A stretch of 51,929 bases of DNA from a virus (IMGVR_UViG_2541047794_000002:1-51929), one strand, 5' to 3'; numbered from the stretch's first letter, positions 32,511-33,551 are shown. Notes: a model not told the origin generated them from the letters alone. Made by a program: numbers and translations.

Positions 32511-33551
32511 ATGAGTGGTTTATATTCGCCAGCGGAGTTAATACAGACTGTTAATGCCGAAGATATTCAATGGCAGATTAACTCTTTATTTATAAACCTG
32601 TTTTTTAAGCGAGTCGTTACATTTGAGACGCGGGATATTGCGCTTGATATTATTGACGATCCAGACATCCCGATGGCTGCATTTTGTTCCCCTATGGTTG
32701 GTAGTAAAGTATCACGCGATGAAGGCTACGAATCAAAAGTAATTCGCCCTGGCTACATGAAGCCAAAAAGTAGTATAGACCCAAATAAAATAGCCGTTCG
32801 TCAACCAGGCGTATCACCGGAACAATTCAATGCATATTCATCACGCAATTTCAAAATAAAGCGAGCGATGGTAAGACAAGCGCAGGCCATTCGCGCACGT
32901 ATTGAATGGCTTGCTGTTCAGGCAATCACAACGGGGAAAAATATCATTGAGGGCGATGGCATTGAACGTTATGAACTGGACTGGAATATAAAACCACAAA
33001 ATATTATCACGCAGTCCGGCGGCACGGAGTGGAGCGGTAGAGATTTATCAACATTTGATCCAAATGATGACATCGAAGAGTACGCAGAAATCAGCGAAGG
33101 GACTACAAATATCATCGTAATGGGACGCAACGTATGGAAAAAATACCGCGCCTTTAAAGCAGTAAAAGATTGCCTTGATACTCGACGGGGATCTAATTCC
33201 GTTCTTGAAACGGCCCTGAAAAATCTTGGGGATTCCGTCAGTTTTAAGGGTTACGTAGGCGATGTGGCTATTGTTGTGTATAGCGGACGTTATACCGACG
33301 AGGACGGAACAGAAAAATATTTCCTTGATCCTGATTTGATGGTTCTTGGCAATACATCACTTCAGGGCATCGTTGCATACGGTGGCATTCAGGATCCGGA
33401 GCTAATCCGAATGGGGCTGACTAAAGCCGAACTCGCACCGAAAAACTACATTGTGCCTGGAGATCCGGCTATTGAGTACGTACAAACGCACTCTGCACCA
33501 CAGCCAATACCGGCCCGCATCAATCGTTTTGTTACCGTTCGCATTGGTTAA
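32511..33551 (+). CDS. Major capsid protein homolog (lambda gpE family) encoded by the element
   Basis: 346 aa aligning along its length with lambda E (ITQSGGTEWS, FKAVKD-LDTRRGSNS-LETA, GDVAIVVYSG, PGYMKPK); clearly divergent from the interrupted prophage E. Confidence 0.85.
   Translation: MSGLYSPAELIQTVNAEDIQWQINSLFINLFFKRVVTFETRDIALDIIDDPDIPMAAFCSPMVGSKVSRDEGYESKVIRPGYMKPKSSIDPNKIAVRQPGVSPEQFNAYSSRNFKIKRAMVRQAQAIRARIEWLAVQAITTGKNIIEGDGIERYELDWNIKPQNIITQSGGTEWSGRDLSTFDPNDDIEEYAEISEGTTNIIVMGRNVWKKYRAFKAVKDCLDTRRGSNSVLETALKNLGDSVSFKGYVGDVAIVVYSGRYTDEDGTEKYFLDPDLMVLGNTSLQGIVAYGGIQDPELIRMGLTKAELAPKNYIVPGDPAIEYVQTHSAPQPIPARINRFVTVRIG

Follow-up and report, generated by a model that had tools for sequence, protein, structure and literature searches.

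We found that a satellite assigned to the helper-embedded PICI (HE-PICI) site group E:Phage_cap_E:80 splits the lambda-like E gene of its helper prophage, and that the satellite's own E-family capsid gene is probably spared passively, through diverged flanks, and not through the mismatches it carries in the 10-bp att identity block. A phage parasite housed in a phage capsid gene is a striking arrangement: because the satellite sits in this gene, head building by the helper is blocked until the satellite leaves. Much of this system is already known: HE-PICI biology, the exact E site and a comment that the own gene of the satellite is too dissimilar to be targeted have been in print since 2022–2023. 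Our analysis contributes a modest correction. The 10-bp identity block overstates the crossover segment, and the own gene often matches the likely 7-bp segment in full, a point that is useful for the design of att substrates and for the annotation of HE-PICI elements.

Anatomy of the satellite and its helper

The window, by which we mean the whole 51,929-nucleotide stretch of viral DNA analysed (IMGVR_UViG_2541047794_000002), contains exactly two copies of AGCCGAAGCA, with 0.19 expected by chance. Between these copies lies an 11.4-kb element, which interrupts a lambda-like E gene (Table 1). Rejoining the two helper E fragments yields a 341-amino-acid protein, and both fragments bear out the placement, made in a first-pass annotation of this DNA, of the att core within the helper codons for PGYVKPKH. 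The rejoined, empty site of the window element is an in silico one; its 87 nucleotides are found unsplit in 80 deposited phages, with identity of at least 99% in 13 cases, and phage lambda reads GTCAAGCCGAAGCATGAAG at this position. Complete E. coli genomes commonly contain related elements lying between two 'major capsid protein' fragments. The window copy itself matches no complete E. coli RefSeq genome fully, the best match reaching 83% coverage and 93% identity.

The satellite genes run in the order int, alpA, small ORFs, DUF4222, primase, SSB, E, D, a second alpA, cos, Nu1 and cargo. The integrase ORF opens with a GTG at 25295, and its likely start is the ATG at 25346, chosen against the RefSeq annotation of a close E. 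coli relative at the same site (L001). Compared with the SSB gene of this relative, the window copy lacks four nucleotides (GAGT) near 31949, which leaves two overlapping ORFs and, probably, a pseudogene. Three direct repeats of AAAGCCCTCTACC beyond the primase gene probably represent an iteron-type origin. Two intergenic palindromes, at 26836..26871 (36 nt, 83% self-complementarity) and 35440..35469 (30 nt, 93%), may act as bidirectional terminators.

The rest of the window is a lambdoid prophage with exo/RecT, an S24 repressor, an O replication gene, cos at 18808, Nu1-A-B-C-D and tail genes. Between its replication and lysis/late genes lies a large serine recombinase (9739..11265; Resolvase, Recombinase and zinc-ribbon domains). 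The same region carries, on the minus strand, a BD-FAE/alpha-beta hydrolase esterase (11615..12658) and a full-length Gram-negative porin (15168..16310).

Table 1. Satellite and helper features within the window.
Feature	Coordinates	Strand	Evidence and remarks
Helper lambda-like E, N-terminal fragment, codons 1-82, ending ...PGYVKPKH	24938..25182	+	ORF, alignment
attL identity block AGCCGAAGCA	25173..25182	+	Exact repeat; likely 7-bp crossover segment 25173..25179 (AGCCGAA)
Body of helper-embedded PICI satellite, ~11.4 kb, co-oriented with E	25183..36610	+	ORFs, Pfam; fits HE-PICI description in PMC10111431
Doubled TGTATTGC motif, P' arm, probable arm-type binding site	25311..25331	+	~133-135 bp from attP centre/att segment
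Tyrosine integrase, Arm-DNA-bind_3 + Phage_integrase	25346..26581	+	Pfam
AlpA-family excisionase/regulator	26574..26810	+	Pfam Phage_AlpA, E=3.1e-15
Primase/helicase-type replication protein	29548..31299	+	D5_N, DUF5906, Pox_D5
Three direct repeats of AAAGCCCTCTACC, 87 and 73 bp apart	31308..31481	+	Directly 3' of primase gene
SSB gene, frameshifted by 4-nt deletion	31840..32246	+	Alignment with intact L001 gene
Satellite's own E-family major capsid gene, 346 aa	32511..33551	+	Pfam Phage_cap_E, E=3.4e-42
Satellite's own gpD-like head decoration gene	33561..33902	+	Pfam HDPD, E=2.6e-16
AlpA-family gene, second copy	33912..34256	+	Pfam
Satellite cos-like site, 12-mer GGGCGGAAGGCG	34281..34353	+	Comparison with helper cos
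Nu1-like small terminase subunit	34449..35000	+	Pfam Phage_Nu1, E=1.1e-24; 36% identity to helper Nu1
Abi_C-domain protein, right-end variable cargo, probable defence gene	35690..36451	-	Pfam
Doubled TGTATTGC motif, P arm	36514..36534	+	~80 bp from attP centre
attR identity block AGCCGAAGCA	36611..36620	+	With flanks CTCATGT-AGCCGAA-GCATGAG
Helper E, C-terminal remainder	36621..37401	+	ORF, alignment; counted from the attR block, the C-terminal fragment is 36611..37401, KPKHEVNPQ...

Relation to published satellites

Tommasini, Mageeney and Williams (NAR Genom Bioinform 2023, PMC10111431; bioRxiv 2022) described Eco567.11capE, an 11-kb HE-PICI that lies in an icd prophage, within its lambda-like E gene; it has a 10-bp identity block, and its excision after mitomycin C was shown experimentally. 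They also placed a doubled TGTATTGC motif ~81 bp upstream and ~132 bp downstream of the attP centre of HE-PICIs (PMC10111431). Site, orientation, the pairing of int with alpA, the doubled motif with its spacing, and zone layout all agree between the window element and the published E:Phage_cap_E:80 group. E is split at KPK(H), and every core satellite gene lies on the plus strand, like E. The doubled motif tgTGTATTGCantgTGTATTGCa is present at both published distances (0 expected by chance), and the attL arm agrees with the E_Phage_cap_E_80 attL alignment in the supplement of PMC10111431. The gene content fits the four-zone PICI layout of integration, Bro/dynamic, replication and late zones; no Bro-N domain was detected with Pfam among the element ORFs scanned.

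The Eco567.11capE group (PMC10111431) shares with the window element the target codons in lambda-like E, the 10-bp identity block, a near-identical P' arm, doubled TGTATTGC motifs at matching distances, and int, alpA, primase, SSB, own E and own D in identical order. Unlike Eco567.11capE, the window element has a frameshifted SSB, a Nu1-like gene, a cos 12-mer that departs from that of its resident helper, and a capsid allele whose other carriers are mostly satellites with different integrases. Gram-negative PICIs such as EcCICFT073 are alike in size, int-alpA-primase layout, cos packaging by a lambdoid helper and captured late-zone capsid genes, but they sit in chromosomal genes and meet their helper in trans only, whereas the window element lies inside the capsid gene of its helper. 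Capsid-forming PICIs (cf-PICIs) likewise have their own major capsid protein and small terminase subunit. We rejected a cf-PICI identity because the 17 element ORFs scanned against Pfam held only E, D and Nu1 homologues, with no portal, protease/scaffold, head-tail connectors or large terminase of the capsid-forming set.

Satellite P4 has an integrase in the wider P4/PICI clade, an AlpA-type regulator and a D5-type primase in common with the window element. P4, however, depends on P2 as its helper, whereas the window element has a lambdoid helper and carries E and D capsid homologues; nothing appears to mark a likeness to P4 beyond the wider integrase clade. Pfam gave no matches to Sid, Psu or Delta genes among the ORFs scanned (some small ORFs lay outside the scan), and Rfam gave no match to a C4 or isrK immunity RNA in the element at E<=0.1. 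The same Rfam scan returned two matches. One, symR-like, lies in the dynamic zone of the satellite (28211..28283, minus strand), a place where an immunity RNA of P4 type could be anticipated; it scored 35 bits, below the gathering score of 61 (E=0.0013), and is probably due to chance. The other was to a microRNA model, and we treated it likewise.

Viewed more broadly, the element resembles lambda Int with its core and secondary attachment sites, and the 'regulated gene integrity' elements: a tyrosine integrase works with arm and core sites across a short overlap and now and then uses a secondary site, and a gene broken by insertion is mended by excision. It differs in that the broken gene belongs to another mobile element, the helper phage. 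In addition, synonymous positions of its att segment vary, and attL is sometimes unequal to attR.

The satellite's own capsid gene at the att codons

The first-pass annotation had pointed out that the satellite's E-family gene encodes the corresponding motif, PGYMKPKSS, with AGCCAAAAAG at 32761..32770, and that four of these ten nucleotides differ from the att core; it proposed that the own gene would thereby escape self-targeting. The sequence and the count are both correct, the mismatches between AGCCGAAGCA and AGCCAAAAAG falling at positions 5, 8, 9 and 10. The protein alignment is gapless near the site, so the two 10-mers are homologous. Their four mismatches, however, are background divergence of two genes. 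Helper and satellite E share 42.6% amino-acid and 49.5% nucleotide identity, and ungapped 10-nt windows along them contain a mean of 4.98 matches (sd 1.94), compared with 6 in the core. Over 30 nt around the site, 15 positions match, and the mean at that length is 15.0. Since both values are near the gene-wide means, the site is no more diverged than the remaining gene. Within the 7-bp segment, the own gene has a single mismatch, at the synonymous third base of a Pro codon, a position that is polymorphic.

Aligning E genes around the KPKH codons, a check suggested by the first-pass annotation, upheld the conservation of the motif: P80, Y82, K84, P85 and K86 show no variation across phages ranging from lambda to chi-like ones. 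Val83 and His87 are kept in phages down to 25% identity, and both are changed in satellites; the conservation of site residues was judged on five phage E proteins. Of the 58 columns without variation among these five proteins, 19 are changed in satellites. As these columns extend over the whole protein, there is no local excess of derived residues at the att site, and the idea that such residues cluster there, which we tested, was not supported. Among deposited phages, we found no E protein more than ~42% identical to satellite E, and the satellite E lineage is old and satellite-specific.

Likely crossover segment and putative flanking half-sites

Comparison with more distant relatives reduces the extent of the shared att sequence. 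The integrase of L001 is 99.8% identical to that of the window element, while a Kosakonia relative (L005) and a Cedecea relative (L004) have integrases with 86% and 82% identity. The Kosakonia element has attL AGCCAAAGCA and attR AGCCAAAACA; the Cedecea element has attL AACCAAAGTA and attR AACCAAAACA. In these two loci, identity between attL and attR shrinks to the first 7 nt (ARCCNAA). At attR, the 7 nt are flanked by inverted half-sites, CTCATGT and GCATGAG, with the general form CTCATGY-N7-RCATGAG, a reading drawn from one inverted repeat and the family consensus. Crossover most likely takes place within the 7 bp ARCCNAA.

Table 2. Consensus sequences of the three kinds of site across the family.
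Site	Left arm	7-bp segment	Right arm
attB	..TAtGTcA	AgCCnAA	gCAtGAnGTg
attP	TTGACTCATgT	AnCCnAA	GCACTTAGCATGG
Own gene	..TAnATGA	AgCCnAA	aAGcAGnAT

The central 7 nt conform to a common consensus for attB, attP and the own gene, and consistent differences are found only in the arms, chiefly the right one (Table 2). The helper's His-Glu codons (CAY GAR) mirror the CTCATGY of attP, whereas the satellite's Ser-Ser codons (AGY AGY) do not, and the right arm of the own gene fits two of seven consensus positions.

Working att segments include AGCCGAA, AACCCAA, AGCCCAA, AGCCTAA, AACCGAA, AACCAAA and AGCCAAA, the last of which is both the own-gene version in the window and the att segment of other relatives. 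Among natural att sites, core positions 2, 5 and 8 are variable. Furthermore, 8 of 35 loci have unequal attL and attR segments: positions 2 and 5 differ, with AGCCGAA at one end and AACCCAA at the other, and either end can carry either version. The supplement of PMC10111431 gives the identity blocks agccgaagca and aacccaagca for this site group, AGCCGAA and AAGCA are both among the published blocks, and unsplit helpers with AACCCAA exist, PhiR46_1 being one. Given the unequal attL/attR pairs and the mixed published blocks, the overlap may be placed elsewhere, or the enzyme may tolerate heterology. The unequal pairs themselves could stem from unlike sites recombining, followed by segregation of the heteroduplex in the overlap, or from a later exchange among composite prophages.

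Own-gene alleles across related satellites

We surveyed 86 loci with a satellite-type E gene, 51 of which show at least one E-type junction. A scan with the satellite capsid protein across genomes, one for each species, yielded only four loci; most members came from viral contigs (IMG/VR). Because the surveyed loci are interrelated and some are redundant, the counts should not be read as independent events. Across the 51 loci, the own-gene 7-mer equals an att 7-mer of the same element in 25, compared with a permutation expectation of 25.6, which indicates that own genes do not avoid the att 7-mers. L001 illustrates this: it has the same AGCCGAAGCA core, and its own gene reads AGCCGAA, as do those of 34 of the 40 relatives with the same integrase type.

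The AGCCAAAAAG allele, by comparison, belongs largely to other company. It is found in ten loci (E at least 97% identical), nine of which have an integrase on the contig, and seven of these nine integrases are less than 45% identical to that of the window. Ten satellites (including L016, L026, L029, L031 and L036) combine a 52%-identical integrase with the same capsid lineage. For six of these ten, with contigs long enough, an intact helper-type E lies ~5 kb downstream, which places those satellites upstream of E, presumably in another helper late gene. Two further loci, from Kluyvera and Superficieibacter (L002 and L003), lie beside a tRNA-Met(CAT) gene and have yet another integrase, and they too encode PGYMKPKSS. 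The capsid allele thus occurs independently of the integrase. Satellites with different integration modules seem to have late modules in common, and the satellites with other integrases could descend from E-targeting ancestors.

Probable escape of the own gene and competing explanations

Helper-type attL junctions numbered 89, 59 in viral contigs and 30 in metagenome contigs, and all carry the helper-type Val codon. Pattern searches for junctions with satellite-type E (attL in metagenomes, attR in viral contigs) found none, in collections containing 126 or more satellite-type E genes. Fuzzy-pattern 'attR' matches followed by non-E sequence were pattern noise at unrelated positions and do not mark alternative insertion sites. 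The expectation that this integrase family targets the conserved K-P-K site of lambda-like E is supported, both by these 89 junctions and by the 201 instances of the E:Phage_cap_E:80 site and the excision reported in PMC10111431.

From these junctions and the family-wide patterns we infer both the positions recognised by the integrase and the inertness of the own gene. The integrase would act on lambda-like E genes at their invariant Lys-Pro-Lys codons, recombining these with attP, with crossover in ARCCNAA between the inverted half-sites CTCATGY and RCATGAG. Because the own gene is often perfect over the 7 bp, any discrimination has to lie in the half-sites on either side. Judging by the sequence patterns, the own gene probably makes a poor substrate because it lacks these half-sites: in the left arm Val is replaced by Met, and in the right arm His-Glu is replaced by Ser-Ser, with loss of the B' half-site (RCAYGAR to RAGYAGY). 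Protection would then be a passive by-product of old divergence. Neither the permutation of 7-mers nor the derived-residue columns give a sign of selection for the site difference. The claim that the own gene escapes self-targeting therefore survives as to its outcome, with 0 self-type against 89 helper-type junctions and an own gene that is probably no target. The cause it offered, the four core mismatches, fails on the background divergence of the two genes, the 7-bp extent of the shared block, the 25 of 51 perfect matches and the use of AGCCAAA as an att segment.

Tyrosine integrases usually need identity across the overlap, and this property, along with the 4/10 mismatches in the window and the lack of any self-type junction, speaks for the view that the mismatches between AGCCGAAGCA and AGCCAAAAAG protect the own capsid gene and may have been selected for doing so. 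The overlap requirement is also stated in PMC10111431, as is the view that differences at the E site likely keep the satellite from integrating into itself. We nevertheless regard protection by the 10-bp mismatches as quite improbable: six matches in ten are at or above the gene-wide background, own genes read AGCCGAA in most same-integrase relatives and often match their own att 7-mer perfectly, positions 5 and 8 vary among working att sites, and the AGCCAAAAAG allele occurs mostly in satellites with unrelated integrases.

Those frequent perfect 7-bp segments invite a different suggestion, namely that the own gene is a usable secondary site, and that insertions there, or deletions and inversions between attP and the own gene, do occur but are purged because they wreck the satellite. 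That databases lack self-type junctions would then be survivorship, not enzyme specificity. The 28 off-target insertions reported for this integrase clade (PMC10111431) fit such a picture, as does the apparent tolerance of two differences within 7 bp in 8 of 35 loci. It is set back by the arms, which differ at most positions (two of seven matching in the right arm), and by the junction census, in which self-type events are missing from collections rich in satellite-type E genes; we consider it unlikely. Least probable of all, and very doubtful in our view, is that self-targeting poses no real hazard, since integration would happen only on entry into a helper-holding cell and AlpA with Int directionality would block sites on the same molecule; the site difference would then have no functional meaning. 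The two AlpA-family genes of the satellite, the published time course of ordered excision following composite replication (PMC10111431) and the independence of the own-gene sequence state from integrase type all accord with it. After induction, however, many satellite copies coexist with active integrase, which makes copy-to-copy insertion physically possible, and tandem and nested satellites do occur at other sites (PMC10111431).

The changes at Val83 and His87 tell against passive sparing through diverged flanks, in that an adaptive-escape model would predict them as well. It is conceivable, though we think it improbable, that two things hold jointly: that Met83 and Ser87-Ser88 were selected to erase the arm half-sites, and that this integrase clade recombines across two 7-bp mismatches. 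If true, erasure of half-sites would amount to a coding-level 'att-site immunity' that shields satellites from sibling satellites, and a two-mismatch overlap tolerance would be unusual for a tyrosine recombinase.

Packaging site and variable cargo

The satellite's cos-like region is 85% identical to the helper cos region at 18776..18848, and their 12-mers differ, GGGCGGAAGGCG in the satellite against GGGCGGCGACCT in the helper (18808..18819). The satellite site agrees with the cos of the lambda-like phages PhiR46_1 and YDC107_1 (94.5%). Tallied in the same cos context across the fetched loci, a set that mixes satellite sites with the helper's own cos and that of PhiR46_1, the 12-mers were GGGCGGCGACCT (48 occurrences), GGGCGTCAGGCG (18), GGGCGGAAGGCG (3) and GGGCGGCTGACG (1). 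The satellite may last have been packaged with another type of helper. At 30687, inside the primase gene, a sequence one mismatch away from the lambda cos 12-mer is no more than chance would give, and the real cos-like site is the one listed in Table 1. A Nu1-family gene is clear in the window element, yet 11capE is stated to lack terS in PMC10111431; either the family was missed there or the elements differ.

At the right end of the satellite, cargo differs among close relatives. The Abi_C gene of the window element is also present in STEC711, while elsewhere its place is taken by DUF2971 or by DUF262 with HEPN, and this variable end looks like a defence-gene hotspot.
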